From the IMG/VR virus record IMGVR_UViG_3300036830_000184, positions 7,877-71,876 of that record: a stretch of DNA of 64,000 nt; one strand, 5' to 3'. The notes under the pieces were generated by a model, which saw nothing but the letters and a program-made list of their open reading frames with translations, did not search any database and had not been told where the DNA came from. Shown in pieces: positions 620-62,915 of the stretch. The position numbers and the translations under genes were made by a program. Every line of letters starts with the position of its first letter. Within the stretch, counting starts at the first letter, position 1. Origin of the DNA: a virus.

Positions 620-1558
620 TCAGTATTTGAGCACCTTGAACTCGCCCCAGCCGCAGCCGGCGCTCATCTTGCTATCGGGCCGGCCCTCGCCGACGCCAAC
701 CTGCTGGCCCGCTCGTGCCAATAAGTTAACGACATCGTTCGCCGAGAACTGGTCGCCGTCCCACTTCAGGATCAGTTGCGCTTGCCAGCCATCGGCGAAC
801 ATCGGCCGGGCGCGCAGGTCAATGCCGCCGTTGGCGTTGCGGCCGGGGCGGATGTCGCAGCGCGGTTCGCCCTTGGTGATCCGGACCAGACCGGTGCCCT
901 GTTCATCGAAGCCATCGGCCATGACGAACAGCGACATTTTGGCGATTGTCATTTTGAAACCCACCGTGCGGCAAGCCGAAATCAGTGCGTTTCTGAAAGC
1001 AGACGCGGGAATGCCGTCCCAGCCTTCTATCGCTCGGTGTCTGGCGTTCTCATAGTTCTCGTCAAAGTCGCGGGCCTGGCGCGTCTTGCCCTTGCGGCTT
1101 TGGCTGCCGGCTTCCTGGGTTGCGCGGATGGTGTTCTGCACCTTCTGGCTGAACTTATGCAGCACCAAGGGGGTGGTTCCCTCGATCGTGACGCGGGCGA
1201 GCTCGAACTTCGGCGGTGAGATAGAGACGCGCGCTTGTGGCTTCGTTTTGTCGTCGGGATCGGTCAACCCAAGGTCGCGGAGATCGGACCGGATCTCGAC
1301 CGGGGGCCGGCGCTGGCCGGGGATCGGCGCTTTGACCCGCGCGATGATCTCTTGTTCATCCGGGGTAACCCGCCTCGCCGCCGGGCTACCGCGCCGCTTC
1401 GGCGGTAGATAGTCGGTATCGGGCTGCAAGGTCTCATCGACGGTGACGGCAACTACCTTCCGGGGCCGGCCGCGCTTCTTCGGCTGTTGGACCAATAGCG
1501 CGCCTTCGTCTGGGTGCTCGCCGCTTGAGTAAGAATTCCCACGTGATTTCACAGCCAT
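620..1558 (-). CDS. Stand-alone Cas7/RAMP-like protein with a disordered AT-hook N-terminal extension
   Basis: ATG at 1558 with SD AAGGGGAG (track ORF 620-1720). The C-terminal ~195 aa carry RAMP signatures: first strand ARVTIEGTTPLVLH, GIPASAFRNALISA (cf. IPGSSLKGALR), and terminal Gly-rich loop VGVGEGRP...GCGWGEFKV. The N-terminal part has KKRGRPRK. Confidence 0.8.
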   Translation of the reverse strand: MAVKSRGNSYSSGEHPDEGALLVQQPKKRGRPRKVVAVTVDETLQPDTDYLPPKRRGSPAARRVTPDEQEIIARVKAPIPGQRRPPVEIRSDLRDLGLTDPDDKTKPQARVSISPPKFELARVTIEGTTPLVLHKFSQKVQNTIRATQEAGSQSRKGKTRQARDFDENYENARHRAIEGWDGIPASAFRNALISACRTVGFKMTIAKMSLFVMADGFDEQGTGLVRITKGEPRCDIRPGRNANGGIDLRARPMFADGWQAQLILKWDGDQFSANDVVNLLARAGQQVGVGEGRPDSKMSAGCGWGEFKVLKY

Positions 1559-2658: not shown

Positions 2659-3570
2659 ATGTCGATCGGCCAGCGTTACTACACACCCAACCCATTCGAG
2701 ATCGACGCCAACGGCGTGCCACTCGCGTTTGCGCAGTTGTTCTTCTATGCAACCGGGACGAACACGCCGCAGGACACCTTCTCTGATGTCGGGTTGACGG
2801 TCGCCAACGCAAACCCGGTGCGTGCGGACGCCAACGGCCGGTTTGGCTCGATCTTTCTGGCCACAACCAACGGTTACGCGGTCTCATTGTGGACGGCGCC
2901 GACCACCGACAACCCCGGTGGGGTCCAGGTCTGGACGGAAGACCCGGTTGGCCCGGCGGCGGGTGGGGCGGTCAGCAATGTCGTCGGGATCATCGGCGAG
3001 ATCCGCCAGTTCGCCGGCATCGCGGCCTCGATCCCGAGCGGCTGGTATCAGTGCTATGGCCAGGCGGTCAGCCGCACAACCTACGCGGCAGCCTTCGCGG
3101 CGCTCGGCACAACCTGGGGCGCTGGCGATAGCTCGACCACGTTCAACCTGCCCGATCTACGCGGCCGGGTGACCGCTGGCCTCGACAACATGGGCGGTTC
3201 GGCGGCCGATCGGATCACCGCTGGGGTGTCGGGGATCGCCGGCACCACGCTTGGCGGGTCCGGTGGCGATCAGGCGCAGCAAGAGCACACCCACACCATC
3301 AATGATGGTGGGCACACCCATGCGCTTACCGATCCGGGGCACGTTCATACCGTCAATGTTGCCACCGCGGTGACGGGCGGATCGGCCGCGGGCCTATCGG
3401 CGACCGATGCGGCACCGGCCGTGGTGCCGTTCGGGGTCAACACCGCGACGACCGGGATCACTATCGCCTCGGCGACGACCGGGATCACGAACAGCAACAC
3501 CGGGGCCGGCGCGAGCCAGAACGTGCAGCCGACATCGATGGTCTACAGCATTATTTATCTAGGAGCGTAA
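2659..3570 (+). CDS. Tail fiber protein with tail-collar domain
   Basis: N-terminal DANGVPLA..LFFYATGTNTP..NPVRADANGR virion-attachment-type region, collar motif GEIRQFAG..PSGWYQCYGQAVSRTTYAA..FNLPDLRGR, and HTH/HVH repeats. Confidence 0.85.
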   Translation: MSIGQRYYTPNPFEIDANGVPLAFAQLFFYATGTNTPQDTFSDVGLTVANANPVRADANGRFGSIFLATTNGYAVSLWTAPTTDNPGGVQVWTEDPVGPAAGGAVSNVVGIIGEIRQFAGIAASIPSGWYQCYGQAVSRTTYAAAFAALGTTWGAGDSSTTFNLPDLRGRVTAGLDNMGGSAADRITAGVSGIAGTTLGGSGGDQAQQEHTHTINDGGHTHALTDPGHVHTVNVATAVTGGSAAGLSATDAAPAVVPFGVNTATTGITIASATTGITNSNTGAGASQNVQPTSMVYSIIYLGA

Positions 3571-6999: not shown

Positions 7000-7609
7000 T
7001 CGGCGTGTGTCCTTTTGTCAAATCCTGAATGTGCCAATGCAGACGCAAGGTCATCTCCAGGTCGGTGGTGGCGTTGTGGGCATCGGTTACGCGCTCTCCA
7101 AGAAGGGTGCGCACAGCCTGCGTCAGGGTCGGTGACTTGAAGGTGTTGTTGCCGGCAGCCATCATCGCGCTGCTCGGGGGTAGTTTGCAGCGCGGGGTCG
7201 CGGCCTGCATCACATCGACAATGGGCTTCCGTTCCAAGGCTTCGATCTGGCGCCGGCTCGCGCCGTCACGCAGTAGGGCAATCCGCATAATACGCTGATC
7301 GAATAACGGCACATAGCCTAGGATGACCGATGCACGTGCCCAAGCGTCCATATAAGTCCTGGTGACGATTGACTCTTTCACGCCCAGCCGCACCGCTTCC
7401 TCTTGGGTGATGCCGTGGATCGCTATCGCGGCGGGGGGAATGATCCAGCCATCCGGGCGGACCACGAGGTCCCAGGCTGCAATTGCTTGGCGGGTGTTGG
7501 GATCAACGAGCTTGGCCGCGAACTGCACGATATGCGGTTGGCCCGGATCGTCACTCGGGGTTTTCCATAGGACTAAGCCGGTTGTCTCCAAGTCCATTGC
7601 CAGGATCAT
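6926..7609 (-). CDS. DEDDh 3'-5' exonuclease (DnaQ-like)
   Basis: MILAMDLETTGL (ExoI), HGIT, FDQRIM (ExoII), AHNATTD (ExoIII). The start at 7609 overlaps the upstream stop (ATGA). Confidence 0.85.
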   Translation of the reverse strand: MILAMDLETTGLVLWKTPSDDPGQPHIVQFAAKLVDPNTRQAIAAWDLVVRPDGWIIPPAAIAIHGITQEEAVRLGVKESIVTRTYMDAWARASVILGYVPLFDQRIMRIALLRDGASRRQIEALERKPIVDVMQAATPRCKLPPSSAMMAAGNNTFKSPTLTQAVRTLLGERVTDAHNATTDLEMTLRLHWHIQDLTKGHTPNERPTANRTEPGGIQDPEGLPQPG

Positions 7610-8409
7610 TTGCGCACCGTCAGATCGTCTACGTCGCGGATGGTCACGCCGTCGATGATGGGGATTGCATCGCCCGGCTTGCCGATGGCGGCCCGGATCA
7701 GCGCGTCCGAGGGCACGCAATAGGCGCGCGGCACCAAGGCCGGTTGGGTGATCTCAAAGAGCCGCCGCTGATTGAGGCTGGATGTTCCGAAGTCGCTCCC
7801 GTGGGCGCGGGTGCGCGTGGCCGGTTTGGCGTCGGCGACGGCGCGCGCCTTCTCCGCTTCCTCGGCTGCGGCTGTGGCGTCCTTATAAGAGACGGTTCCC
7901 GATCCTTGGTCGGCGAGGTGTTCGGCTTGGCGCGCGAGTTCCGCCAGACGGGCGGCCTCGGCTTCGTCGGCCTGTTGCTTGGCGAGGTTCTTCGCGGCCT
8001 TGTAGGTCACCACGGCCTGAAGGATTTGTTCCGCCAGCGTGAACGGGGGTTTCCGGTCGCGCAGAGATCGGATCGTCAGATCGGGGCCGATGGTCCCATA
8101 GGTGGCATCGATCGCGCGCCCGGCGGCCAGCACCGGCGCCTTGAGCGACACGCGGGACGTTTCGACGCTGCCGTTGGTCGAAAGGAACCTTTGCAGGACA
8201 GCCAGGATCTCCGCCGCGGTGCCGTCCTGTTCATCGGTGGTGATGGTCGGATGGGCTTGCAGGAAGCGCAGGCAACTCGCGGTCAGCACCGCCGCGCGAG
8301 CCCTCAGCGGCTCGGCCGCTACGTCGAGGATGGCTTGGACCGTTTCAAGCGACAGCAGGTCACTCAGCGTCGGGAGATTATGGCCACGGGACGGAGGATC
8401 ACTCATCAA
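7606..8409 (-). CDS. Hypothetical helical protein in the recombination module
   Basis: 267 aa. RVSLKAPVLAAGRAIDA and C-terminal LVPRAYC..IDGVTI; coupled to the exonuclease gene. Confidence 0.65.
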   Translation of the reverse strand: MMSDPPSRGHNLPTLSDLLSLETVQAILDVAAEPLRARAAVLTASCLRFLQAHPTITTDEQDGTAAEILAVLQRFLSTNGSVETSRVSLKAPVLAAGRAIDATYGTIGPDLTIRSLRDRKPPFTLAEQILQAVVTYKAAKNLAKQQADEAEAARLAELARQAEHLADQGSGTVSYKDATAAAEEAEKARAVADAKPATRTRAHGSDFGTSSLNQRRLFEITQPALVPRAYCVPSDALIRAAIGKPGDAIPIIDGVTIRDVDDLTVRK

Positions 8410-47965: not shown

Positions 47966-48874
47966 ATGGCCGTTATTACCACGGGGTCACATCCTAAGGC
48001 ACTTTGGCCGGGTATTCGCGCGTGGTGGGGCAGAAGTTACGATGAACACGTGCCAGAATACCCGGATCTATTCGAGACGGATACTTCGGACAAGGCTTAC
48101 GAAGAGGAAGTCGAAATCACCGGGTTCGGCCTGGCGCCGGTCAAGCCGCAGGGGTCGCAGATTTTCTACGACACCGAAGTGCAAGGCCCGGTCAGCCGCT
48201 ACACGCACGTGGCGTATGCCCTCGGGTATATCGTTACCTACGAAGAATTAAGAGACGATCTCTATGAGGTGGTCTCCAAGCGACGTGCCCAGCAGTTGGC
48301 GTTCTCGATGCGCCAGACCAAGGAAAACGTCCTGGCGGCGATCTACAACCAGGGCTTCAATAGCTCCTTCCCCGGCGCCGATGGCGTGGCCCTGTTCTCG
48401 GCCTCGCATCCGACCCTCTCCGGCAACCAGTCGAACTTGCTGACCGTGGCTGCGGATTTGTCGGAAATCGCGGTCGAAGACCTCTGCATTCAAATAATGC
48501 AAACCACAAACAACCGTGGCATGAAGATCAGCGCGCTGCCACAGTCGCTTCATCTGCCGCCGCAGCAGTGGTTCGAGGGTAATCGCATCCTTCATTCTGT
48601 GTTGCAGAGTGATACCGCGAACAACAACATTAACGTGTTGCGCGCCACTGGTGCCTTCCCCAAGGGTATCAAAGTCAACCATTACTTCTCGTCAGGGACG
48701 GCGTGGTTCATTCGGACCAACATCCCGCGTTCGATCCAGTATTTCGAGCGCGATCGGATCAGTTTTGATCAGGATAACGACTTCGATACTAAGAACGCCA
48801 AGGCGGCTTGCTATGAGCGGTATTCCGCTTACTGGTCGGATTGGCGCGGAGCCTACGGGACGCCTGGGGTTTAA
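47966..48874 (+). CDS. Major capsid protein
   Basis: Strong SD AGGAG; 302 aa; SDKAYEEEVEITGFGLAP..YALGYIVT.E..DGVALFSASHP..DFDTKNAK..ERYS..DWRG.YG. Confidence 0.9.
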   Translation: MAVITTGSHPKALWPGIRAWWGRSYDEHVPEYPDLFETDTSDKAYEEEVEITGFGLAPVKPQGSQIFYDTEVQGPVSRYTHVAYALGYIVTYEELRDDLYEVVSKRRAQQLAFSMRQTKENVLAAIYNQGFNSSFPGADGVALFSASHPTLSGNQSNLLTVAADLSEIAVEDLCIQIMQTTNNRGMKISALPQSLHLPPQQWFEGNRILHSVLQSDTANNNINVLRATGAFPKGIKVNHYFSSGTAWFIRTNIPRSIQYFERDRISFDQDNDFDTKNAKAACYERYSAYWSDWRGAYGTPGV

Positions 48875-48888
48875 CTCCGGCTGTATTG

Positions 48889-48921
48889 AAAAAGGGGCGG
48901 TGGGAGTGATCCCAGCCGCCC
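48889..48921 (-). terminator. Rho-independent terminator (minus strand)
   Basis: Minus strand GGGCGGCTGGGA-TCAC-TCCCACCGCCCC then TTTTT, convergent with the capsid gene end. Confidence 0.75.
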
Positions 48922-48922
48922 T

Positions 48923-48977
48923 TCCCCTTGCGTCTCCCGGCCAGACCTCTCGTCGCCTAGCCGTGCCACGCCATGCC
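48923..48977 (-). repeat. Single pentamer unit A5 after the lysozyme gene
   Basis: GGCAT GGCGT GGCAC GGCTA GGCGA CGAGA GGTCT GGCCG GGAGA CGCAA GGGGA: 11 in-phase units followed by the terminator. Confidence 0.8.
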
Positions 48978-48990
48978 GCCAGCAGTCTGC

Positions 48991-49470: not shown

Positions 49471-49499
49471 CTCGGCTCCTGCAAGGTGGCCGGATAATC

Positions 49500-49780: not shown

Positions 49781-49842
49781 TGTCCCGCCGATAGGGACGG
49801 TCTAAAGCCTATGGCCGCCCACCAATCGGGGAAAATCAATTT

Positions 49843-50214: not shown

Positions 50215-50303
50215 GCTGCGGTTGCACAACAGCCCCTGCCTGCATATTCTGCGCCCGACCGCGCGAGCAGCCGGCGTCTCCCATTCTATGGAGTGCCCTG
50301 CAT

Positions 50304-51221: not shown

Positions 51222-51230
51222 GGCGCACCC

Positions 51231-51695
51231 ATGGCCGGCGATGTCGTCACCAGCACGTTGCTCGAAAACGGTCCGAGTCGTTGGGCCTACTGCTTCACGG
51301 GCTATTCCGATGGCACCGGTGAGAGCGGGGTCGTAAAGGTCGACGCCTCATCGGACGGCGATCTTGGCGTGGTGGTCCAGGGCCAGACCTTCTATCCAGG
51401 GGTCCATCTGGTCGTGACGGGCTTGTGGTATTGCGTCTCGAACATGGTCTTGGAGATGCTTTGGCAAGCTGACTCCAGCACCGACTTTCTGGTGTTGCAG
51501 GGCTTCGGCCGAATGGACTTTCGCGACAGCAAGGGCGGCATCCAGGGGCTGATCAACCCCGCCGCGACGGGTGCGACCGGGTCGATCCTGTTTACGACCA
51601 CGTTCGCGGGTCCTGGGGCCGTGGGACCGCCGGTTACTCAGCCTGGCTCCTACTCGATCATCATGCAGGGCCTGAAGGGCATTCCCCAATCGTGA
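51231..51695 (+). CDS. Virion structural protein
   Basis: SDGTGESGVVKVD..GATGSILFTT..YSIIM. Confidence 0.65.
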   Translation: MAGDVVTSTLLENGPSRWAYCFTGYSDGTGESGVVKVDASSDGDLGVVVQGQTFYPGVHLVVTGLWYCVSNMVLEMLWQADSSTDFLVLQGFGRMDFRDSKGGIQGLINPAATGATGSILFTTTFAGPGAVGPPVTQPGSYSIIMQGLKGIPQS

Positions 51696-51704
51696 GGGAG
51701 CCCG

Positions 51705-52256
51705 ATGGCAGATGACCGGCACTACGTAGGCGGTCAGTGGTATTTCATTGACGATAGGTCGGGCTTTAAGGTTAGGTCATCCAAGGCCCGGCTGCGCTGG
51801 GATGGGGTAATGACCAGCGGGTCGCACTGGGACCCGCGCCAGCCGCAAGACATGGTTCAAGGTGTGCGCGACGAACAAGCGCCGCCATGGACCCGCGACC
51901 GCCAGCGCAATCAGTTCACCGTCGTGGCCTCTTACGTGACCGCCTTCTCAGGCGCCGGCAGTCTGTCCATGGAGATCCAGGACAGCCAGGGCTTCAGCCT
52001 CGGCGACATCTGCCAAGTGCCTTTGGACAATACCGGCAACATCTTCCAGTTCCGGATTTCCGCCATTTCCGGAAATGTCATTTCGTGGGCCTCTCCGGGA
52101 TTGCCGGGCACGGTCGGCGGCAGCTTCGGCGATCCCCTGGAAAACCAAGTGTTCGACATCACAGCCTCGCAGCCTGCCAATGTCAGCGATCTGGTCAATC
52201 AGGACGGCACAGTGATCACCGATAGCACCGGGACGCCGGTGTTGGTCCAGACCTGA
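51705..52256 (+). CDS. Structural-region protein
   Basis: DDRSGFK..WDG..WDPRQPQDMVQGVRDEQ plus a C-terminal beta module. Confidence 0.65.
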   Translation: MADDRHYVGGQWYFIDDRSGFKVRSSKARLRWDGVMTSGSHWDPRQPQDMVQGVRDEQAPPWTRDRQRNQFTVVASYVTAFSGAGSLSMEIQDSQGFSLGDICQVPLDNTGNIFQFRISAISGNVISWASPGLPGTVGGSFGDPLENQVFDITASQPANVSDLVNQDGTVITDSTGTPVLVQT

Positions 52257-53200
52257 TGGCCAGCACGTATATCACCGACTACCTCGAACGCGGCCTGGCG
52301 GCGGCTCGTCCGGCCACGCCACCGGTCGGGACCGCCTTGGCGCTGTATGAGGCAACCGACACCGGCGCGTTGTCGATGTGGGACGGCAGCCAGTGGCTCA
52401 ACGTGGTGGTGTCGATCACCGCCGGCACCGGATTGAGCGGCGGCACGATCAACTCTGAAGGGACCATCGCGCTCGCGGCCATCGCCTCGCATGACGTGTT
52501 GGCCAATACCACCTCGGGCAGCGCCGCACCGACCGCGACGACGGTGACTGCTTTGCTCGATGCCGCCTTGGGCTCGACGCAGGGCGATGTGCTGTATCGC
52601 TCCGCGTCTGCCTGGACCGTGTTGGCTCCGGGCACTTCGGGACAGGTGCTGCAATCAGGCGGCGCGGCGGCGAACCCATCCTGGCACACGCCGGCCACCG
52701 GCAGCGTCACCGAGGTCGATACCGGGACCGGCCTCTCGGGCGGCCCGATCACCAGCAGCGGCACGATCAATGCCGATTGGGATGGTGGGGTTGTCACCGC
52801 GCTCGGGTCCGGGCTCTCATTGAGCGGCGGCACGCTCGATATCGAAGCCTCGGAGAAGATCCGCACCATCCCGTTCCCGATCATCGGCGTTCCGTCCGAC
52901 GCGCAGCAGATGAACGTGACGCTCACCCAAGGCGGCACCCTGTTGGCCAATGGCGGCACGGCTCAAGCCTACGTCCCAACCAACCCGACAGCGACCGAAA
53001 CGCTCGAAATCAACACCGTCCATAATGGCACCATCACCACCCAAGGGACGATCAGCATCAACACCAGCGGTGTGGTCACCTTCCCGACCTTCACGGCCGT
53101 GACGATGGCGGCCGGCGACACCATCCAATTGCTCAACCAAGCCACGGCTGATGCCACCTTCGCGAACGCCTGTATCAGCCTGCAATATCAGGTGACGTGA
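52256..53200 (+). CDS. Tail fiber-like protein
   Basis: Thr/Gly-rich; shares GTGLSGG and QGDVLYR..W..LAPGT modules with 58718-60841. Confidence 0.7.
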   Translation: MASTYITDYLERGLAAARPATPPVGTALALYEATDTGALSMWDGSQWLNVVVSITAGTGLSGGTINSEGTIALAAIASHDVLANTTSGSAAPTATTVTALLDAALGSTQGDVLYRSASAWTVLAPGTSGQVLQSGGAAANPSWHTPATGSVTEVDTGTGLSGGPITSSGTINADWDGGVVTALGSGLSLSGGTLDIEASEKIRTIPFPIIGVPSDAQQMNVTLTQGGTLLANGGTAQAYVPTNPTATETLEINTVHNGTITTQGTISINTSGVVTFPTFTAVTMAAGDTIQLLNQATADATFANACISLQYQVT

Positions 53201-53201
53201 C

Positions 53202-54110
53202 TTGGCACACCGCTATTGGCGGGTGTGGATCACCCAAAGCCAGACCAACGGCATCGCCTCGATCGCCGAAATCACCATGGCCGCGTCCTATGGCGGACCC
53301 AATCAGATCGGCTCGGGCACAGCTTCCGCATCCGGCGTCTACTCATCCCCGGCCAACGATCCCGGCAAAGCCTGTGACGGCGACACCGCGACCTGTTGGG
53401 CGGTTGTCCAGAATTGGGCATCCTCCGCGCCGTCATGGTGGGAATACGACTTCGGCTCGGGGAACGATGTCGGGGTCCTGGAACTGAAGATCACCGCCCA
53501 AAGCGGCAGCGCCGACTTCGCGCCCTACACCCTCACCCAATTCCTGCTGCAATATTCCGACGACGACGCCACCTGGATCACCGAGGCCGGCTTTACCAGC
53601 CAAACCGCCTGGACGGCCGGATCGCAGCAGACCTTTCAGGTGCCGGTGGCAGCAGTGGGCTCGGCGCACCGCTACTGGCGCTACGATATGTATTCGAACG
53701 CCGCCACCAATACCGCGGCGATCTCCGAAACCACGATGGCATCCACCAAGGGCGGCAGCAGTCTGTTCGGTGGTGGCACGCCCTACGCTTCCAGCGCGGC
53801 CAATCCCGCCGGCAATGCCTGTGATGGCAATATCGCGACGTTCTGGGCAGCCAACAACGGCTTCTTCCCCGCGTGGTGGGCCTACGATTTCGGCTCCGGT
53901 GTGAAGGTGGTCGAAGCCACCATGGCTCTCAACACCGGCATCACCAACAACGGCCCGACGACCTTCTCGATCGACTACAGCGACGACAACGTTGCGTGGC
54001 TTCCGGCCGGCTCGTTCACCGCCTCGGCCTACGTCGGCACCGTCGTGCAGACCTTCGATCTATCGGTCCCGTCGACCGGGCAAAAATTCCTCTCCTGCGG
54101 GATGATCTGA
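53202..54110 (+). CDS. Tandem discoidin/F5-8-like carbohydrate-binding protein
   Basis: Two repeats of AHRYWR..E.TMA..ACDG..T.WA..WW.YDFGSG..YSDD..W. TTG start. Confidence 0.72.
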   Translation: MAHRYWRVWITQSQTNGIASIAEITMAASYGGPNQIGSGTASASGVYSSPANDPGKACDGDTATCWAVVQNWASSAPSWWEYDFGSGNDVGVLELKITAQSGSADFAPYTLTQFLLQYSDDDATWITEAGFTSQTAWTAGSQQTFQVPVAAVGSAHRYWRYDMYSNAATNTAAISETTMASTKGGSSLFGGGTPYASSAANPAGNACDGNIATFWAANNGFFPAWWAYDFGSGVKVVEATMALNTGITNNGPTTFSIDYSDDNVAWLPAGSFTASAYVGTVVQTFDLSVPSTGQKFLSCGMI

Positions 54111-55117
54111 TGGCAGTTTTAACTACCAGCGGTAGCTACACCTTCAGCCAAAGCGCCGTGGAGATCATCACCGCCGCGCTGCGGATTTGCCAGGTTGTGA
54201 ACGAGGAAGAAACCCCAACCGGGGCACAACTGACCAACGCGCTCGCCGCGCTCAATGCGATGACAAAGGGTTGGCAGGTCTCCGGCATCCACCTGTGGGC
54301 CGAGGAAGAGGCGATCCTGTTCCCGCAGCCGAACCAACCGCTCTATTATATCGGGAGCGGCAGCACCGACCACGCGACGCTTTATTCCTCGCTGGCGATG
54401 ACCACCTTGGCGAGCACCGCGCTGGCCGCCGCGACCACGCTGGTTTTGGAGTCAGCCAGCGGCTTCGTGGTCGGCAACACTATCGGGGTCCAACTCGACT
54501 CCGGCAGCAACTTTTGGACAACCATCACCACGGTGAGCGGAACCACGATCGGTCTTACCGCCCCCCTGCCCAGCCAGGCGACGGCGGGCACGACCCAGAT
54601 GATCTTCAGCTATGACGTGCCATTGGTCCGGCCGCTCCGCGTCTATACGGGCCGGCGGTTTATCTACAACAGCAGGATCGAGAACCCGATGATCATGCTG
54701 TCCCGGACCGATTACCAGAACCTGCCGAACAAATTCAATCAGGGGACGATAACCCAATTCTTCTTCGACCCTCAGACGGGAACAAGCCAGGGCGCCTACA
54801 CCGCCCCCCTCGCGCAGGCCAACCTCTGGCCCTCCCCGATCGACAACCAATCGGGCTTCCGGTTCACGGCCCAACGCCCGCTGCAAGACTTCGCAAACTT
54901 GGCCAACTTGCCGGACTTGCCGGTCGAATGGTCCGTCGCGTTGAAGTGGAACCTGGCCCAAGAGATCGGTCCGGAGCTATCGACGCCGATGGATCAGATG
55001 ACCTTGATCGGGAAAATGGCGGGAACTTGGTTCGAACGCATCCAGCAATGGGATCGGGAACCCGAGGCCGTGCTATTTGGGGTTGCACACGAGCCGGGCT
55101 ACCACACCGGCGTGTAG
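54110..55117 (+). CDS. Head-tail adaptor (P22 gp4-like) with inserted beta module
   Basis: EIITAALR..ALNAM..W..SRTDYQNLPNK..LWPSP..DLPVEW..ALKWNLA. Confidence 0.7.
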   Translation: MAVLTTSGSYTFSQSAVEIITAALRICQVVNEEETPTGAQLTNALAALNAMTKGWQVSGIHLWAEEEAILFPQPNQPLYYIGSGSTDHATLYSSLAMTTLASTALAAATTLVLESASGFVVGNTIGVQLDSGSNFWTTITTVSGTTIGLTAPLPSQATAGTTQMIFSYDVPLVRPLRVYTGRRFIYNSRIENPMIMLSRTDYQNLPNKFNQGTITQFFFDPQTGTSQGAYTAPLAQANLWPSPIDNQSGFRFTAQRPLQDFANLANLPDLPVEWSVALKWNLAQEIGPELSTPMDQMTLIGKMAGTWFERIQQWDREPEAVLFGVAHEPGYHTGV

Positions 55118-55135
55118 TCGGCCTATGGTTTGCTC

Positions 55136-55248
55136 GTCCTTTTAGGACATTGGCATGGTGTGGCAGGCTTGGCGGGGCGTCGCGCGGTTTCGCGAGGCCC
55201 GGTGGGGCTAGAACCACAAGGCGGCGGATCGGGCAACCCTTCCGCCGC
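55136..55248 (+). ncRNA. Putative single-unit pentamer small RNA A7
   Basis: 5' hairpin GTCCT-TTT-AGGAC; GGCAT GGTGT GGCA GGCTT GGCGG GGCGT CGCGC GGTTT CGCGA GGCCC GGTGG GGCTA; 3' hairpin GCGGCGGA..GG-GCAA-CC..TCCGCCGC. Confidence 0.65.
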
Positions 55249-55312
55249 ATTGCCAGCCTAAGCTATAGAGAGAGCAGGCCCAGCAGCGCCCACACCCCAG
55301 GATGGCGGCGCT

Positions 55313-56824
55313 ATGGCAGAACTTCAATTCGCTGGTCAGGCATATCAAGCTCGCTCGACCCAGCTTATCGCCCAGCAGTGCATCAACGCCTTCGTTGAGA
55401 CCTCGCCGAAAGAGGCGAAAAGCCAAGTTCCGATCTACGGCACGCCGGGCCTCTCGGTCTTTGCCAGGTGCGGCAAGGGTCCGGTCCAGGGCTTATGGAT
55501 CATGGGGAGCCTGCTTTACGTCCTTTCGGGCGGCGCGCTCTACTCGGTCACCCCCACCGGCACGGCCACCCTGATCGGGCAGACCAACTTGGGCGGCGTG
55601 TGCGTCCTCGCCGACAACGGCCAGCAACTCGTCATGGTCGATGGCTTCGCGGGCTGGGTGTATCAGCCCGGTGGCCTCAACCAAGTCACCACGCAAACGG
55701 TCGCACCGGTCAACCAAGTGCAGATGACCGTGGGCGGCACGATTACCAACGCCGACACCATCTCGATCACCGCGACCTCCGGGAGCATCAGCGGCAGCCC
55801 GCAGACCGTGACAGTCACCGTCACCGGGGCAGACGACACCACCACCCTTGCCGCAGCGCTCGCCGCCGCGATCAACGCCAACACCCACATCATCGGCGTC
55901 GGCGTGAAAGCCACCTCGGCTCTTGCGGTAGTCACCCTGCAATGGCCCACCACCATCGGGATCGCGTGGCTCCCGGCGGTCTCCTCCGGGGCAAGCGAGT
56001 CGTTGACGGCCGGCGCGACCGGCTTGGGCGGCGGGACCGTGATCCCGGCCAACATCACCGGCACGATCACCTCCGGCGACACGCTGCAAATCCCGCTCGA
56101 TAACGGGAGCACCTTCACCACCACGGCCGCCTCGACCGTCACCGCGGCGGACACGGCCATCATTCTGACGGACGGCGTGCCGTCCCAGGTTAGCGCCGGG
56201 GCCACGATCAAGGATAGCAGCACCACCCTGGCGCAGATCCTGGCGCCTGCGTTCAAGCCGCCTTGCTACGTCTGTTTCATGGATGGGTATTTCGTCTTTG
56301 CCGCGACCAACACCCGGCAATTCTTCCTATCGGCGATCAACGACGGCACCCAATACAGCGGCTTGGACTTCGCCACCGCGACCGCCAACACGGGCTTTGT
56401 CCTGGCTGTTCTCAACTTTCACGAGCAACTTCTGATTTTTACCAGCAAGCCTTGCACCGAGGTTTGGTATGACAGCGGGGCGTCGGCCTTCCCGTTCCAG
56501 CGCTACGATGGCGTGTATATCCAGCGCGGACTCTCTAATTCGTTGGCGGTCGCGAGCGAGGATAACACCTGTTTTTGGCTCGGCGACGACGGGATTTTTT
56601 ACCGGAACAACGGCTTCCTACCGGAAAGGATTAGCACTTTCGCGATGGAGCACGCTTGGGCGCAGTATCCGCAGAAGTATTTCGACTGCATCGCCTTCGT
56701 GCTTGACCAAGAGGGCCACAAGTTTTTGGTGTGCAACTTCATCTCGGGACAAGCGACCTGGGTTTTTGACCTGAGCACAAAATTGTGGCACCAGCGACAG
56801 TCCTACGGGAGCCCTTGGGTATGA
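55313..56824 (+). CDS. P22 gp10-like tail hub/DNA stabilization protein, N-terminal part
   Basis: YQARS..CIN..GTPGL..DNGQQL..FMDGYFVF..TEVWYDSG..FWLGDDG..ISTFAMEH..EGHKF..TWVFDLSTKLWHQR. Stops before the usual C-terminal region. Confidence 0.8.
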   Translation: MAELQFAGQAYQARSTQLIAQQCINAFVETSPKEAKSQVPIYGTPGLSVFARCGKGPVQGLWIMGSLLYVLSGGALYSVTPTGTATLIGQTNLGGVCVLADNGQQLVMVDGFAGWVYQPGGLNQVTTQTVAPVNQVQMTVGGTITNADTISITATSGSISGSPQTVTVTVTGADDTTTLAAALAAAINANTHIIGVGVKATSALAVVTLQWPTTIGIAWLPAVSSGASESLTAGATGLGGGTVIPANITGTITSGDTLQIPLDNGSTFTTTAASTVTAADTAIILTDGVPSQVSAGATIKDSSTTLAQILAPAFKPPCYVCFMDGYFVFAATNTRQFFLSAINDGTQYSGLDFATATANTGFVLAVLNFHEQLLIFTSKPCTEVWYDSGASAFPFQRYDGVYIQRGLSNSLAVASEDNTCFWLGDDGIFYRNNGFLPERISTFAMEHAWAQYPQKYFDCIAFVLDQEGHKFLVCNFISGQATWVFDLSTKLWHQRQSYGSPWV

Positions 56825-56929
56825 CCGTAGGATGGCGTGGTGTGGCAGGTAAGGCACCGTGGGCTTGGTTGAGCATCGCGGGGCGAGGCTGCCGCAAAGG
56901 ACGCGGATGGGGCGACCTGTCCGCTGTCC
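56801..56929 (+). ncRNA. Putative single-unit pentamer small RNA A8
   Basis: 5' stem TCCTACGG/CCGTAGGA; GGCGT GGTGT GGCA GGTAA GGCAC CGTG GGCTT GGTTG AGCAT CGCGG GGCGA GGCTG; 3' hairpin with GCGA loop. Confidence 0.6.
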
Positions 56930-56949
56930 GTTCGCGCTAAGGTAGCGCC

Positions 56950-58614
56950 ATGGCCGACCTAGCCGGGCAGATTGCCCAAGTAATTATTCCCAGCGACAGC
57001 ACCGGCAACCCGTCGATGGTGCTCGTTGACTGGCCGAACACCAACCTGTGGTTGCTCGGGAGCGGCGGGCAGCGGATCTACACCGTCGCGCTCGCGACCC
57101 AGAACCCGGTCCTCTCGGTGGTGGGCTCCCCGAACGTCGGCAACGCACCGCTCGCCGCCGGCTGCGACGCGGCGGGCAACTGTCTGTGGCAAGGTGGGTC
57201 GACCAACAGCCAGACGGTCTACCGGCTCGATCCGACAACCTTGGAGTCGACCGCAAGCCACGGCAGCAACAATTCCTCGCTCGGCAACTACCCCGTCGAT
57301 ATCGAGGGCAGCGAGTCGATCTGCTGCATCACCACGGGCGGTGTGGCCTACGCCCTGTGCAAGTCATCGATCAGCGCCAATTGCAACATCCTGCGCACCG
57401 ACGACATGACGGCGGCCGGGGCCTCAATCGTGGTCTCCGGCGCGTTTCGTGGCCACTCGTGGATGGTTCCCGGCTACACCGGGACCTCGATCGCGACGGC
57501 CTACTTCATCGATAAGACCCTCTCGGGCGCGCAAGCCTCGGTCGGCGTTTACACGATCGCCATCACCTCGGGAGCCAAAGACTACAACATCGCCACGTGG
57601 CCGACCCCCAACCCCGACATCAACGGCAGTCAGATCGGGAGCCTGTCCGCCGCCGGGATCGATGCCAGCCTCAGCACGATCACCACCAACGGCATCGGCT
57701 TTGACAGCCACGCCGGGATCATCGTCGCCGACGTGAACGGCAACACCGGCGTGCGCTATCTGGTCGGTCTCAGCCGAACCACGGCCGCGATCATCTGGCG
57801 CCTGGCGCTGCCGGATGTGAACTGGCCGATCGACCTCACGCAATGCCGGATCGCCTCCAGCAACCTGCCATACCTCAATTCCTCCATCACCATCGCGCCG
57901 ATCCTGGGGATACAGACCGCCAGCGGCGCGGACACCGCCAACACCGTCACCGGGGTCGGGGCCGGCGATCTCGGCTTCAACACCTATACCGACGATCAGT
58001 CGCAACTCATGGTTTGCGACGCCTTCTTCTCGGGCTCGGGGCAGGTCACTCCGGTCTCGGGCTCGGCTTCCAGCTTCGCCGGTCTGGCGATCCTCTCGGT
58101 CTGGCCACCCTTCCCACCAGCACCACCACCCACCCCGGTTATCGGACCCGGCACCATCAGCGGCCCGCTCGGCGGCTGGCGCGGGATCGTCGGCATCAAC
58201 TGGCAAGGATTGGCTCTTCTCGGCGATGCCTGGGCCGGGATCGTCGGGCTCTCGGACTTCGATGCCTTCACGGAATACGGCAACCCAATGGTCATGCTGG
58301 TGACCTCGCCGCCGATCCAGAATGACCGCAAGCGGATTTTCATCCGAAAGTTCGAACTCGACATCCAAGCCGCGACGGCGGACCTCGACACACCGGACCC
58401 GCAACTCAACCTGGATTATTCGCGCGATGGCGGAATGACCTGGAAGCCGCTGCTTATCCGCCGTTCGATGGGCCAAATCGGCCAATACACCAAACGGTTG
58501 CGGTGGCTGAACCTCGGCGAGTCACGCGCTTGGGTGTTGCGGATTACGATAAGTGATCCCGTTAGGCGAACGATCATCGGCGCCTATGTTGACCTGGCCG
58601 CAGGGATCGGCTGA
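56950..58614 (+). CDS. Beta-rich domain fused to a gp10-like C-terminal domain
   Basis: After a PPFPPAPPP linker: LLGD..FELDIQ..PQLNLDYSRDGGMTW..SMGQIGQYTKRLRWLNLG..ITISDPV. Confidence 0.75.
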   Translation: MADLAGQIAQVIIPSDSTGNPSMVLVDWPNTNLWLLGSGGQRIYTVALATQNPVLSVVGSPNVGNAPLAAGCDAAGNCLWQGGSTNSQTVYRLDPTTLESTASHGSNNSSLGNYPVDIEGSESICCITTGGVAYALCKSSISANCNILRTDDMTAAGASIVVSGAFRGHSWMVPGYTGTSIATAYFIDKTLSGAQASVGVYTIAITSGAKDYNIATWPTPNPDINGSQIGSLSAAGIDASLSTITTNGIGFDSHAGIIVADVNGNTGVRYLVGLSRTTAAIIWRLALPDVNWPIDLTQCRIASSNLPYLNSSITIAPILGIQTASGADTANTVTGVGAGDLGFNTYTDDQSQLMVCDAFFSGSGQVTPVSGSASSFAGLAILSVWPPFPPAPPPTPVIGPGTISGPLGGWRGIVGINWQGLALLGDAWAGIVGLSDFDAFTEYGNPMVMLVTSPPIQNDRKRIFIRKFELDIQAATADLDTPDPQLNLDYSRDGGMTWKPLLIRRSMGQIGQYTKRLRWLNLGESRAWVLRITISDPVRRTIIGAYVDLAAGIG

Positions 58615-58720
58615 TGATCCGATCGGCGTGGCGGTTCATGGTAACGCTGGGCTTTGCGGGGCAGCGTGCCCCCTGGCGTCGAAGAACCGATGAGCACGGG
58701 GCGGGGAGACTCGCTCCGTG
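58605..58720 (+). ncRNA. Putative single-unit pentamer small RNA A9
   Basis: 5' stem GATCGG/CCGATC; GGCGT GGCGG TTCAT GGTAA CGCTG GGCTT TGCGG GGCAG CGTGC CCCCT GGCGT CGAAG; 3' hairpin CACGGGGCGGG-GAGA-CTCGCTCCGTG. Confidence 0.6.
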
Positions 58721-60841
58721 AGCGGCAACGCACCGGCCCCCCAAAGGATTGTCCCGCCGCTCGGTGATCAACCGCTGATGGACGGGTCCGGGCGGCCGAC
58801 ACAACCTATGGTTCAATGGATGCAGCGGTTGTCGGCCTTCGTTGGCCCGGTCAACGCGGCCTCCGCAGGATCTGGCTCGGTCACCAACCTCAGCATCTCG
58901 GAACAACTGACCGAACTAGAGAACCAAATCGCGGTGCTGGTAGCGGCGACCAGCGCGGACTTCACGGCGCGCGGGCAGATCGCCGGGCTTGAGCAACAGA
59001 TCCTTGCGCTCAAGGGTTTGCTTGGCCAGCAGGCGCAGCAACCCGGCCCGGTCTTCGTTCCCGGCTTCACGGGCATCGTCTATCTGACCAACGGATGCCG
59101 CCTATTGGATGGTTATGGGGGTCCAAACAGCGCGATCTATGGCTCGATCGGCGACCTCTACACCCAACGCGACGGCAGTGCCGGCGGCACGCTCTGGGTC
59201 AAGACCTCGGGGGAGAACACCGATAGCGGTTGGTCGGTGGCTGACCTGCCTGGCACGGTCACGGAGGTGGACACCGGCACTGGGCTGACCGGTGGGCCAA
59301 TCACCAGTAGTGGGACGATCAGTCTCGCCGCGATTGCCAGCCATGACATTTTGGCCAACATCACCGGCGGCTCCGCTGCGCCCATCGCCAATACCCTTTC
59401 CGCCACCATCGACGCAGCCATAGGCAGCACCCAAGGCGACATCCTCTACCGCTCAAGCGCGGCATGGACGGTGCTCGCCCCTGGCACGGCGGGCAACTTT
59501 CTCGCCACCGGCGGCGCGAGCGCGGACCCATCATGGGCGGCGGGCAGCGGGGGCACCGTCACGAGCGTGGCGACCGGCACCGGACTGACGGGCGGCCCGA
59601 TCACCACGACGGGCACGGTCAGCTTTGCCGCCATCGCCAGCCTCGATTTGCTGGCCAATATTACCGGCGGTGCGGCAGCGCCGGTTCCGAACACGCTGAC
59701 CGCGGTGATCGACGCGGCGATTGGCGCGGTTCAAGGCGACATTCTTTACCGTGGGGCCTCGGCTTGGTCGGTGCTGGCGCCGGGCACGGCCGGGCAGTTC
59801 CTGCAAACCCAGGGGGCGAGCGCTAATCCGGCGTGGGACACGGTTGGGGACATTGGCCGCAACCTTCTGCACAATTCGGTATTCCGCATCCAGCAGCGCG
59901 GCACCGGACCGTTCACCGCCAGCAGCGCCTATACGGCTGATCGTTGGCTGATCCAAAACGTCCTCGACAGTCAAAGTGTTGCCATCGCCAATATTCTTGA
60001 TGCCGGGCGGGCGCAGATTGGCAATGAGCTTGCGCAATTCACGCTGCAAAACATTTTCACCGGCAATTCCGGGGCGACGGCATTCAATGTCCTAGGCCAA
60101 CGCATTGAGAACGTTTACCGCCTCTCCAACAAGACGGTAACGGTCTCGTTCTGGGCGGTTGCCGGTTCGGGCACTCCCCAACTTGGGGTCAGCATTAACC
60201 AGAATTTCGGCTCGGGCGGTTCGGCCAATGTCAATGGCACCGGCCAGGCGGTCACGCTATCCACGACTTGGACCCGCTACAGCCTCACATTCTCGATTGG
60301 CTCAACATCCGGCAAGACGGTCGGCGCCAATAATTTTACTGCGTTGAATTTTTGGTATTCGTCGGGCGCAAACAACAACACCTTTGCGGGCGGCATCGGC
60401 GTGCAGTCGGGCACCTTTAATATTTGGGGACCGCAACTTGAGTTCGGCAACCTGACCCCGTTCGAGATGGTGGATTTCCCGGTCGATTGGGAGAACTGCC
60501 AGCGGTTCTTTTTCTCGACCTTCGGCAATCAGGTCACGCCCGTGCAGAATGCCGGCGCGGATACCGGCAATATGATGTGGTCGGCGATTTTTGCCGGGGC
60601 AGGCGCCCAACGCAGCCCGCAATTCCTCTTCCCAACTGAGATGCGGGCGGCGCCAACGATCACCTTCTATAACACCCAGGCGACCAACGCGTTCATCCGC
60701 GACCAGACAACCGGCACAGACACCTCGACGGCCTCATACGCCTCATACGCCCACGGTTGTCGCCTTGTTGGCACCGGCCCGGCGGGCTGCGCGGTCGGCG
60801 ACTTCCTATCGGTCCACATCACAGCCTCGGCGGACCTATGA
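58718..60841 (+). CDS. Tail fiber/needle protein
   Basis: N-terminal coiled coil, GDLYTQRDGSAGGTLWVKTSG..GW, duplicated ~95-aa module, and C-terminal RNLLHNSVFRIQQRG..ADRW..CQRFF..MRAAPTIT. Confidence 0.82.
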   Translation: MSGNAPAPQRIVPPLGDQPLMDGSGRPTQPMVQWMQRLSAFVGPVNAASAGSGSVTNLSISEQLTELENQIAVLVAATSADFTARGQIAGLEQQILALKGLLGQQAQQPGPVFVPGFTGIVYLTNGCRLLDGYGGPNSAIYGSIGDLYTQRDGSAGGTLWVKTSGENTDSGWSVADLPGTVTEVDTGTGLTGGPITSSGTISLAAIASHDILANITGGSAAPIANTLSATIDAAIGSTQGDILYRSSAAWTVLAPGTAGNFLATGGASADPSWAAGSGGTVTSVATGTGLTGGPITTTGTVSFAAIASLDLLANITGGAAAPVPNTLTAVIDAAIGAVQGDILYRGASAWSVLAPGTAGQFLQTQGASANPAWDTVGDIGRNLLHNSVFRIQQRGTGPFTASSAYTADRWLIQNVLDSQSVAIANILDAGRAQIGNELAQFTLQNIFTGNSGATAFNVLGQRIENVYRLSNKTVTVSFWAVAGSGTPQLGVSINQNFGSGGSANVNGTGQAVTLSTTWTRYSLTFSIGSTSGKTVGANNFTALNFWYSSGANNNTFAGGIGVQSGTFNIWGPQLEFGNLTPFEMVDFPVDWENCQRFFFSTFGNQVTPVQNAGADTGNMMWSAIFAGAGAQRSPQFLFPTEMRAAPTITFYNTQATNAFIRDQTTGTDTSTASYASYAHGCRLVGTGPAGCAVGDFLSVHITASADL

Positions 60842-61122
60842 CCTTCACCTATTCGCTCACCGATATCCCAACCACGATCCAGCGCTCGGACGGCACGATG
60901 ATCCCGACCGATCCAGGCAATGTCGACTATGCCGCCTTCCTCGAATGGGTCGCCGAGGGCAACACGCCGACACCCTATAAGGCTCCTCCCCCACCCGTTG
61001 CGCCGGTGATCGCCGATAGTGCAGCCTCGCTTTTGCGCGCCCAAGCGACCCGCCTTGCCGCCAAGGGCCGCACCGCCGATGCGCTGGCCGCGACCCTCAA
61101 ATTGATAGGGAACCCCCCATGA
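60838..61122 (+). CDS. Small tail-fiber-associated protein
   Basis: IPTDPGNVDYAAFLEWVAEGNTP. Confidence 0.7.
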   Translation: MTFTYSLTDIPTTIQRSDGTMIPTDPGNVDYAAFLEWVAEGNTPTPYKAPPPPVAPVIADSAASLLRAQATRLAAKGRTADALAATLKLIGNPP

Positions 61123-61439
61123 CTTCCGTGATCATCTCCAACACGCCGCCGTTCGGGGCGCTGACCAATCAAGCCGTCGCCGATCTATTCACGGTCAATC
61201 AGGCGATCGTGCGCCTGCAAGCCGCGGTAGCTTCGGCCGCGAGCGGTTACGCCGGCACCGCCGGCACCGAGTATGAGGGCAATGGCACCAACTTTGGCGT
61301 CGTCGCGTCCAGCGATCCGGGCGCGCAAGGGGCGGCCTACTCCTTCGCCCTGCTCACCCTCGCCAATGCCTGGACAACCTTTTGGAATGCCGCTCTGGCC
61401 TCGATCGAGGAACTAGACAATGGCGTCATTTCGCCCTGA
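61119..61439 (+). CDS. Hypothetical protein
   Basis: 106 aa, ATGA-coupled to the upstream gene. Confidence 0.6.
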   Translation: MTSVIISNTPPFGALTNQAVADLFTVNQAIVRLQAAVASAASGYAGTAGTEYEGNGTNFGVVASSDPGAQGAAYSFALLTLANAWTTFWNAALASIEELDNGVISP

Positions 61440-61534
61440 CGAAATTCTGATTTTCCAGGAAGCATTTTACCACCGTAAGGTCTCTGCGGCGCGGCTGCTC
61501 TCGGTTGTCTCCGCGGTTCTGGGTGTCGAGAGAA

Positions 61535-61795
61535 CGGCACGGCTGATCTCGGCAGGCTTGGCTTCCCCACGCTTATCATGGTTTCGCGTCGCAGCGCGCA
61601 CAGCCCCACGGCTCGGCAGGCACGGCGGACAGGGGCGGGGAACGCACTGTGAGGCGCGGCTTGGCAGGCAGGGCATAGTAGGGCTCGGCTTCTCTAGGCT
61701 GGACTTGGCGGGCGAAAACGTCTTAGGATCGGTTTGTTCCAGTTGAGATGTTGAGGGCGGTTGGGCGGCGGTAGGGGAGACCTTGCCGCCGTTTT
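61535..61795 (+). repeat. Pentamer array A10 with terminator
   Basis: Anchors GGCAGG at 61551, 61615 and 61663 and GGCGGG at 61707; ends in CGGCGGTAGG-GGAGA-CCTTGCCGCCG-TTTT. Confidence 0.78.
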
Positions 61796-61887
61796 CAATG
61801 CAGCCGATTGCGCGAGAGGCGTCTGAGACGGTAGGTTGTGCCGGGGCCTAGCAGCGCTCCGCACCTCGCCGGAGACGCGCTGCATCA

Positions 61888-62229
61888 ATGACCACCTCTC
61901 CCAGTTTGCAAATCGTCAGTTCCCAGCAACTTACGAACGCGGCGGCCACGCTCTACACGTCGCCGGTCGCAACCTGGACGCGCATCGAAAAGGTGACCCT
62001 CTATAACAGCGATAGCGCGAGCCACACCTATTCGATCTATCTGGTGCCGGCCGGGAGCACTGCCGGGGTCACCAATCTGCTTGTGTCGGCGCAGCGGATC
62101 GCCGCCGGGGCCAGCCTCTCGGACTTCAACATCCCCGGCAACTACCTGAACCCTGGCGATTTTATCGCCGCGTTCGCCGACACCGGCGCCAAGGTCGTCA
62201 TTACGATCGGGGGCACCCAGTTTTCCTAA
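61888..62229 (+). CDS. Small virion structural protein
   Basis: TLYTSP..TRIEKVTLYN..LNPGDFIAAFAD. Confidence 0.65.
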   Translation: MTTSPSLQIVSSQQLTNAAATLYTSPVATWTRIEKVTLYNSDSASHTYSIYLVPAGSTAGVTNLLVSAQRIAAGASLSDFNIPGNYLNPGDFIAAFADTGAKVVITIGGTQFS

Positions 62230-62915
62230 TGAGCCAACATCTGGAAAAGCTGGCGGATGGCTTCGACGTAGAGCCCGTGCTGGCGCAACTCGCGAACCAT
62301 CCGGAACTCTGGAACGTCTACCACGAGCGCCGCATCGGACCGCACCGAGACGCCTCGGACATCTGGGTCCGCTACTTCGATCGGGACGTGCTCACCGGGC
62401 CGGAAGCCTACCGCGAGCGGCATCCGCTCGTGTTCTATCCCGCATGGTCGGCGCTGCCGGGGCTGAAGCCGATCGTCAAGCGGCTGATCGACATCGAGCA
62501 AGCGCACCAACTGGGTGGGATTTTGATCACCAAGATCCCGAGCGGCGGCGTGGTGGACTGGCATCACGATCGCGGATCGTGGCACGCCGAGTATTTCGAC
62601 CGGAAGTTGTATGTTCCTTTGAAGAGCAACAGCCGGTGCGTCAACTACGTCGGGACCGAGCGCTGCGTCATGCACGCCGGCAGCGCGTGGTATTTCAACA
62701 ACCTTGTTGACCATGCCGTTGAAAACAATGGGGATACCGATCGACTCACGCTGATTGTGTGCCTGCGCCGGATTGCCTCATTGGCGGACCTGGCAGATGA
62801 TTGGGAAGCGTCCCTTCGGGCTGAAGGCGCGCGTCATGGTAAGGCAGGCGGGGCACGGCACCGCGACGCAGAGCGCGGAGTCGCACCGCGCGGGTCTGAA
62901 AGGATCGGGCAGTGA
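62229..62915 (+). CDS. Aspartyl/asparaginyl beta-hydroxylase-like 2OG-Fe(II) oxygenase
   Basis: LGGILITKIPSGGVVDWHHD..WYFNNLVDHAVENNGDTDRLTLIV. The last ~50 aa are low complexity and overlap pentamer unit A11. Confidence 0.8.
   Translation: MSQHLEKLADGFDVEPVLAQLANHPELWNVYHERRIGPHRDASDIWVRYFDRDVLTGPEAYRERHPLVFYPAWSALPGLKPIVKRLIDIEQAHQLGGILITKIPSGGVVDWHHDRGSWHAEYFDRKLYVPLKSNSRCVNYVGTERCVMHAGSAWYFNNLVDHAVENNGDTDRLTLIVCLRRIASLADLADDWEASLRAEGARHGKAGGARHRDAERGVAPRGSERIGQ
62831..62911 (+). repeat. Single pentamer unit A11 inside the 3' end of the oxygenase ORF
   Basis: GGCA GGCGG GGCAC GGCAC CGCGA CGCAG AGCGC GGAGT CGCAC CGCGC GGGTC TGAAA GGATC GGGCA: G at position 2 in 13 consecutive pentamers. 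Confidence 0.7.

Follow-up and report, generated by a model that had tools for sequence, protein, structure and literature searches.

What do short, hairpin-bounded pentamer tracts do when they occupy consecutive junctions between the virion genes of a phage? This question is raised by a 64,000-nt stretch of viral DNA (hereafter the window), which comprises bases 7877-71876 of the 71,876-bp IMG/VR record IMGVR_UViG_3300036830_000184, rated complete by CheckV. Three such elements, designated A7, A8, and A9, sit in spacers between virion genes on the + strand, and an earlier note on this DNA had read them as single-guide genes for a RAMP protein. The elements are real and do lie in junctions between virion genes, and the guide reading is upheld by a RAMP fold predicted from the same window, by the recurrence of the pentamer code near homologs of the RAMP gene, and by codon-register matches to neighboring genes. 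The system is a named one, corresponding to the VIPR systems of preprints from 2026. We consider it likely that A7, A8, and A9 are each a solo vrRNA gene belonging to the VIPR system that the phage itself encodes, and each guide appears to spell its neighboring gene as rival phages, not the carrier, write it, in the case of A8 under one parse of an irregular unit (the GT parse).

As described in the preprint text, VIPR combines a phage-borne ancestral RAMP protein, vap, and vrRNAs made of 9-16 GGY-NN (YNNGG) units followed by a structured tail, and it recognizes double-stranded DNA by NN pairing alone, with one target base skipped per unit (10.64898/2026.04.26.720920). The same text allows internal degeneracy of the vrRNA, calls candidates from 4 units upward, calls targets at an 80% match, and reports no self-matches at ≥80% (10.64898/2026.04.26.720920). 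Filament structures of VIPR are presented in a companion preprint (10.64898/2026.04.26.720927), and hammerhead ribozymes are reported between some vrRNAs in the available preprint text. Solo vrRNAs are described for F5 satellites and VIPR-null SUSP1-like phages (10.64898/2026.10.15.759431).

Results

Putative guide tracts of A7, A8, and A9 match neighboring virion genes in codon register

The three tracts were converted into target patterns by the published 1-nt skip rule and searched against the window and 90 fetched loci; the comparisons drew on 80 IMG/VR loci with a homolog of the RAMP protein (Vipr) and on 10 tail-gene relatives. None of the 10 related records carries vipr, and the closest of them by tail genes is a complete 70.9-kb phage (G001, whose locus is L001).

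A7 occupies the spacer at 55118-55312 (+), after gene 53873..55117 (a PHROG of unknown function), and its guide tract (55166..55210, +) consists of nine pentamers in one phase following a GGCA anchor (seven GGY and two CGY). The tract matches 18/18 bases at position 3833 of G001/L001, close to the end of the upstream-gene ortholog, where successive codons spell FGVAFEPGY; the own gene gives 16/18, and the remaining nine relatives give 14-16/18. The own near-target (55076..55101, +) is also in codon phase, and its score is lower because a His codon stands at the point where the guide calls for TT (Phe/Leu). The exact A7 pattern has a single match in all viral_contigs of IMG/VR, which is the G001 ortholog. 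Permuting the order of the units gave a maximum of 16 over 1.29 Mb, and 0 of 2000 permutations reached 16/18 in the own gene.

A9 lies in the spacer at 58615-58717 (+), between gene 56950..58614 (phrog_578, C-terminal part) and a tail-fiber gene. Its guide tract (58625..58684, +), composed of 12 in-phase pentamers (six GGY, two CGY, and four other), reads VGINW.G.ALV. in the upstream-gene ortholog, scoring 21/24 in G001, 19/24 in the relative L002, and 18/24 in the own gene (58189..58223, +; 0/2000 permutations), against a maximum of 18 for permuted controls.

A8 occupies the spacer at 56825-56949 (+) after gene 55313..56824 (phrog_578), and its guide tract (56848..56896, +) has 10 units, the first eight of which match the target. 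These read NT.FW.GD in the upstream gene, whose own near-target (56564..56586, +) encodes NTCFWLGD and whose orthologs encode NTVFW[MI]G[DE]. With the irregular unit of the tract read as GT, nine of the 10 relatives match at 16/16 and the own gene at 13/16, and 17 of the 43 exact matches in IMG/VR fall inside orthologs. Scanning A8 in all phases without a slip gave only noise, and the 10-unit pattern scored 15/20 in the whole local database, no better than the permuted maximum of 17.

Across the guides, the match starts at the first unit after the anchor, flanking units score 0, and all matches are in codon phase, a pattern that fits the published wobble-skip rule. All guides have the sense of the coding strand of the target gene, which precludes pairing with the mRNA and implies that DNA is what is targeted. 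The own sites lie 65-750 nt from the guides, and their scores were reached in 0-1 of 2000 unit-order permutations, while the target genes share 87%, 68%, 64%, and 68/61% amino-acid identity with G001. Expressed as wobble-aligned NN matches of ≥80% in another mobile element, A7 reaches 100% and A9 87.5% (both in G001), and A8 reaches 100% in 17 orthologs (GT parse) or 87.5% when the irregular unit is read as TG. Comparison of self with rival gives 16 versus 18 for A7 and 18 versus 21 for A9; for A8, self is lower under the GT parse and higher under the TG parse.

A fourth probable solo guide reads the major head gene

A wider comparison of 97 candidate nine-unit windows of the genome with the phage itself, G001, and nine partial relatives yielded 12 matches versus 1 for permuted windows, and the 12 come from A7, A9, one stray window, and a further element, A5. 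The latter is a probable solo guide standing singly beside the lysozyme gene (48933..48977, −), followed by a terminator-like hairpin, and it reads IVTYEELRD in the adjacent major head gene (47966..48874). The exact A5 pattern occurs in at least 103 IMG/VR contigs, and all 80 of the matches examined encode IVTYEELRD inside capsid homologs (50-91% identity). At 48230..48255 (+), the capsid gene of the phage itself specifies an identical peptide of nine residues, but with TTA for Leu and AGA for Arg, and scores 16/18. These two codons are rare in the phage (across 21 own genes, TTA accounts for 1.6% of Leu codons, n = 631, and AGA for 3.3% of Arg codons, n = 425), and they are the sole synonymous changes able to break positions read by A5. 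Such apparent escape from A5 by rare synonymous codons is, at the level of sequence, direct evidence of natural selection from the gapped code.

Scanning genome_contigs with the A5 pattern returned 24 matches, 9 of them in capsid homologs. Eight Gluconacetobacter contigs (L311, L313, L314, L318, L326, L328, L331, and L333) have a capsid gene 77-78% identical to that of the phage and containing the exact A5 target, which offers at most a weak pointer to the group of the host and to prophages residing there as possible targets.

A predicted RAMP protein, its partner gene, and pentamer arrays

The candidate protein for these guides is encoded by vipr (620..1558, −), which was assigned as a Cas7-like RAMP gene from an AF2 model, Foldseek, VIA-align, and a homolog motif. 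Its product has 1686 homologs and no Pfam family. The core of the AF2 model (pLDDT 86.4, pTM 0.83) retrieved 69 PDB chains by Foldseek at E ≤ 1e-3 (best, 8do6_E, E 8e-6), and all 35 of the matches listed were subunits of CRISPR effector complexes (type III Csm/Cmr, type VII, and type III-D). The top 30 chains in VIA-align were likewise all CRISPR RAMPs, led by 6s6b_I (Z 11.3, root-mean-square deviation 3.7 over 149 residues), 9g9a_D (Z 10.9), and 6ae2_B (Z 10.4), and a G..G.GWG loop is invariant across 32 homologs of Vipr. These results are consistent with the minimal RAMP fold that is expected of VIPR outside a CRISPR locus, in which an RRM core is accompanied by a glycine-rich loop and a thumb. 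A repeat search for near-identical direct repeats with unique spacers found no CRISPR array, the repeated units being degenerate 5-mers.

Related vipr loci were retrieved with an alignment as query; the single Vipr protein as query returned no relatives. Same-strand GGY period-5 tracts lie within 2.5 kb of vipr in 75 of the 80 loci with a Vipr homolog, and two of the closest loci (L012 and L014) show the same GGCAGG punctuation as this phage, in which GGCAGG-anchored pentamer arrays occupy several non-coding stretches of the genome and are G-rich on the locally transcribed strand throughout. Downstream of vipr and an array lies a partner open reading frame (ORF) of 201 aa (genome coordinates 7559..8164, −; window 1-288 and upstream), with no Pfam match and a Pro/Gly-rich tail. 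It has tblastn matches beside vipr in 51 of the 80 Vipr loci and in 0 of the 10 tail-gene relatives, just downstream of vipr in nearly all loci and just upstream in L011 and L051, and this conservation makes it a candidate for vap, the accessory gene of VIPR.

Three observations on the arrays may be recorded here. The array of one Vipr locus (L027, 11280-11610) is punctuated by TGCAGG, not GGCAGG, and has a GUAA-loop hairpin at its end. In the array upstream of the tail-collar gene 2659..3570, the last unit (2503-2542, +) matches the site 2677-2699 (+), that is, codons 7-14 of this gene, at 14/16 and in phase, and no counterpart was found in G001. The largest array contains a structured cassette twice (15409-15441 and 15597-15629; 94% identical, 188 nt apart), which has no Rfam match at E ≤ 1.

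Architecture of the three elements

The stability of stems was judged against 200 shuffles. The 3' stems with GNRA loops described in the earlier note are all present and far more stable than shuffled sequence, namely, the GCAA-loop hairpin that forms the tail of A7 (55220-55248, +; z −4.11, 1/200 shuffles as good), the GCGA-loop hairpin of A8 (56899-56929, +; z −4.47, 0/200), and the GAGA-loop hairpin of A9 (58695-58720, +; z −5.71, 0/200), which overlaps the GTG start of gene 58718..60841. The hairpins begin 9-12 nt past the guide tract, and alignment of four of them (A7, A8, A9, and the array end at 61764-61791) showed compensatory changes at 5 of 12 pairs. The idea that the stems differ while the architecture is kept accordingly holds for the 3' hairpins, although four copies are a small sample, and the covariance model proposed for finding further copies did find one, located where the L027 array has its final unit behind it (E 0.005). 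A structured 3' tail after the repeat tract is thus present, as in vrRNAs, with a fold unlike the SUSP1 pseudoknot.

The 5' stem that had been claimed for each element stands for A7 and A8 and fails for A9. In A7, it is a stem-loop of 5 bp with a 3-nt loop (55136..55148, +), 19 nt after the stop of 53873..55117 (z −5.2, 0/200 shuffles, but weak at −5.6 kcal/mol), and in A8, the last codons of 55313..56824 pair with the first 8 nt of the insert (56801..56832, +; z −3.1, 1/200). The A9 stem spans the stop codon of 56950..58614 (58605..58624, +) and is not above chance (z −1.0, 30/200). Folded whole, with the boundaries given in the earlier note, the elements have z scores of −3.74 (A7), −3.77 (A8), and −2.50 (A9), and the A9 spacer by itself (58615-58717) has a z score of −0.21. 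Between the stems, the guide tracts show only weak structure (z −2.0, −2.2, and −0.06), as expected for protein-bound RNA.

A run of 11-12 in-phase pentamers, also claimed for each element, is strictly found only in A9, as A7 includes a GGCA unit of 4 nt and A8 slips by 1 nt. The shared leader of A7 and A8 was confirmed, its 11-nt core occurring twice in the 71,876-bp genome and solely in these two elements. In A7, the leader (55152..55165, +) consists of two GGY-NN units and the 4-nt GGCA anchor, and its counterpart with the anchor in A8 is at 56834..56847 (+). The leader units of A7 are in a phase shifted by one relative to the guide tract and match 0, 0, and 1 bases of the target, which places them outside the guide. 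Set against the 9-16 GGY-NN units of vrRNAs, A7 has nine units, A8 has 10 with one of 4 nt, and A9 has 12 with six GGY. Over 10 in-phase units, A7 has seven GGY and nine SGY (at least seven GGY in 0/20 Markov-1 simulations), A9 has five and seven, which is modest, and A8 has four and six, which in a single phase is not above chance. Periodicity by itself is clearly beyond chance for A7 only.

Known RNA classes did not account for the elements. At the gathering score, Rfam gave no match in the 64 kb, hammerhead ribozymes included, and at E ≤ 1, only two weak matches were obtained between 54900 and 58900 (E 0.17 and 0.47), both outside A7, A8, and A9. The tRNA scan found none. None of the three 3' hairpins appeared in a scan of 48500-62500 for intrinsic terminators, and no T-run follows them. 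The promoter scan gave two sites versus 3.2 expected, and the one preceding A9 was given no weight.

Presence and absence of the inserts

Two relatives (L007 and L008) have a 3-nt junction at the position of A7. For A8, four soil DNA runs were sampled in small shares, such that uncovered parts carry no meaning, and in one 251-nt contig (run X1, depth 2.5), positions 56808 and 56940 are bridged by 15 letters of different sequence. This contig (window 56809-56939) provides weak evidence of a variant without A8, which would retain the same C-terminal residues and a 9-nt spacer. The genes on either side of A8 yield products that match phrog_578 at positions 119-327 (55313..56824) and 332-469 (56950..58614), and these consecutive parts of one profile indicate that a single protein in some phages corresponds to two genes here, with A8 between them. 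L007 shows a different gene order as well. Elsewhere in the tail region, genes at 52441-53055 and 59252-59622 share 70-nt direct repeats at a spacing of ~300 nt (76% identical), which are probably repeated protein domains.

The search for self-locus matches among 1990 candidate windows of the 80 Vipr loci returned 2 versus 2 permuted. In locus L067 (9355, −, and 9131, +; G019 66922 and 66698), a guide upstream of vipr matches an 18-codon ORF 224 nt away at 16/18, which is possibly a second adjacent near-self target, or chance.

Discussion

Weighing the guide reading against its rivals

Several results weigh against the reading of A7, A8, and A9 as solo vrRNA genes. In A8, the 4-nt unit at 56858-56861 breaks the phase, the GT parse that fits the orthologs requires two irregular spacings, and the simpler indel, in which the irregular unit is read as TG, gives 15/16 in the own gene and 14/16 in the relatives, with 32 exact IMG/VR matches and none in orthologs. 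The last two units of A8 match nothing. A9 lacks the GGCA anchor, only 6 of its 12 units are GGY, and its full pattern has no exact match in the viral_contigs of IMG/VR. The period-5 Fourier scan detected nothing at the first threshold and, at a lower one, the arrays but not the three spacers, and strict runs of at least four GGYNN units number 4 in the window and 0 in the spacers. At 89% each, the own sites of A7 and A5 lie above the 80% target line of the preprints, the plain GNRA hairpin of the tail differs from the SUSP1 VIPR pseudoknot of the preprint text, the A8-less variant rests on the single 251-nt contig noted above, and among 10 other complete Vipr phages, no adjacent near-self target was found save the doubtful one in G019.

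One alternative is relics, in which A8 chiefly, and perhaps A9, would be guides that have decayed, have lost loading or function, and persist solely as spacer RNA structure. The phase-breaking unit and two unmatched terminal units of A8, the GGY content of A9 with neither an anchor nor an exact target, and the natural variant without A8 all favor decay. Nevertheless, the matches to conserved motifs still stand at 16/16 (A8, GT parse) and 21/24 (A9), the 3' hairpins remain intact, a footprint of six units is reportedly functional in SUSP1 (10.64898/2026.10.15.759431), and the preprint text treats degenerate units, CGY-type ones among them, as a common feature of vrRNAs (10.64898/2026.04.26.720920). 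We therefore hold relics to be unlikely, while A8 may be impaired by its irregular unit. The proximity of the own sites (65-750 nt) and their high scores (16/18 for A7 and A5, 15/16 for A8 under its simplest parse, and 18/24 for A9), three of four of which exceed the 80% threshold at which the preprint text calls targets (10.64898/2026.04.26.720920), could instead indicate autoregulation, whereby solo vrRNAs would bind their own adjacent genes by partial complementarity and tune late genes in cis. Such tuning is not what the scores suggest, as a relative beats self for A7, A9, and A5, the exact A5 target exists in at least 103 other contigs, and the self-mismatches of A5 are two rare synonymous codons, a signature expected if self-binding is selected against. 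Orphan guides in the preprint text also match self less well than non-self (10.64898/2026.10.15.759431), and autoregulation appears quite improbable to us.

It is very improbable that the spacers hold ordinary intercistronic structure (processing sites, stabilizers, or leaky terminators) with the pentamers as a G-rich by-product. Stable hairpins around weakly structured tracts, and the failure of simple periodicity scans to single out the spacers, are what this explanation would predict, but it leaves unexplained the codon-register matches that start at the anchor, the single IMG/VR match of A7 in an ortholog, and the permutation results. Moreover, the leader is also shared with vipr-adjacent arrays, such spacers are absent from the vipr-less relatives, and no U-tract follows the hairpins. 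A site for a TRAP-like ring protein, G-quadruplex tracts, sigma-54 promoters, and a CsrA-type sponge were also considered and were dropped given the codon-register matches.

A possible mechanism

Under the solo vrRNA reading, A7, A8, and A9 would be transcribed together with the late virion genes, with the GGCA anchor presumably marking the 5' boundary of the RNA and the GNRA hairpin probably capping or stabilizing its 3' end. By analogy with the published SUSP1 structures, each RNA would be bound by a filament of the Vipr RAMP protein at one protomer per GGY-NN unit, and according to the published rule, NN would base-pair with codon positions 1 and 2 along successive codons of double-stranded DNA, the wobble base being skipped. 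Targeting would probably fall on conserved motifs of orthologous virion genes in relatives, phages or prophages, that lack vipr, and binding in a mixed infection would silence or obstruct these genes. The phage's own copies, directly upstream of each guide, have scores lowered by substitutions at positions that the guides read.

Tentatively, and with more doubt than confidence, each guide and its adjacent resistant allele may be viewed as a linked "weapon plus antidote" cassette. Because the guide lies within 65-750 nt of the sole escaping allele, recombination with related phages could not easily yield a self-targeting hybrid. The guide mini-gene itself may also be the spreading unit, as the presence/absence polymorphism of A8 hints.

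Relation to known systems

As far as the preprint text goes, the likeness to VIPR extends to a lone Cas7-like RAMP gene in a phage with a small conserved partner gene, to pentamer RNAs of GGY-NN with variable NN and a structured 3' end, and to targets in competing phages with a 1-nt skip whose skipped base falls on the wobble position. The GGCA-punctuated arrays resemble the "staggered arrays" mentioned in the legend of fig. S18 (10.64898/2026.04.26.720920). Published VIPR, by that text, is compact with vrRNAs flanking vipr, whereas the three guides here lie 54-58 kb from vipr (window coordinates) in a late virion operon, and self sites reach 89% where the preprint reports none at ≥80%. The solo vrRNAs of F5 satellites and SUSP1-like phages, in the text available, are similar in being single vrRNA genes away from vipr with wobble-aligned targets, in matching self less well than the rival (for A8, under the GT parse), and in pointing to conflict between related mobile elements. 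They belong to elements without vipr or sit at a vipr-vap1 deletion site, whereas the present carrier has vipr; they aim at vipr, other vrRNAs, satellites, and host REP decoys, whereas virion structural genes appear to be the targets here; and, unlike them, each guide here directly follows a copy of its target that belongs to the carrier and is apparently resistant.

What the sequences suggest as new is the placement of solo guides within a late operon whose phage is itself VIPR-positive, every guide being linked to a resistant allele of its own. Deployment against the virion genes of rivals with a linked resistant allele is not described in the available text of the VIPR preprints.

Class 1 CRISPR-Cas crRNAs share the RAMP filament on a guide RNA and periodic base flipping, but neither identical repeats nor a spacer array is present here, pairing is gapped, and the unit is 5 nt, not 6 nt. 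In T-even phages, free-standing homing endonuclease genes (seg/mob) cause marker exclusion, and there, too, a small insert between conserved genes acts on the neighboring gene of relatives without the insert, the own copy being resistant. The agent here would be a guide RNA with a trans-encoded protein, so the likeness is one of analogy only.

VIPR is months old and has been characterized mainly in one coliphage clade, and the present phage offers a model for how genes shared with competitors could be targeted without self-harm. Its natural triplets of guide, target, and escape would be usable for gauging mismatch tolerance. If the cassette view is true, mixed infections would be biased toward inheritance of this phage's virion-gene alleles, in parallel with the marker exclusion that free-standing homing endonucleases cause, but guided by RNA.

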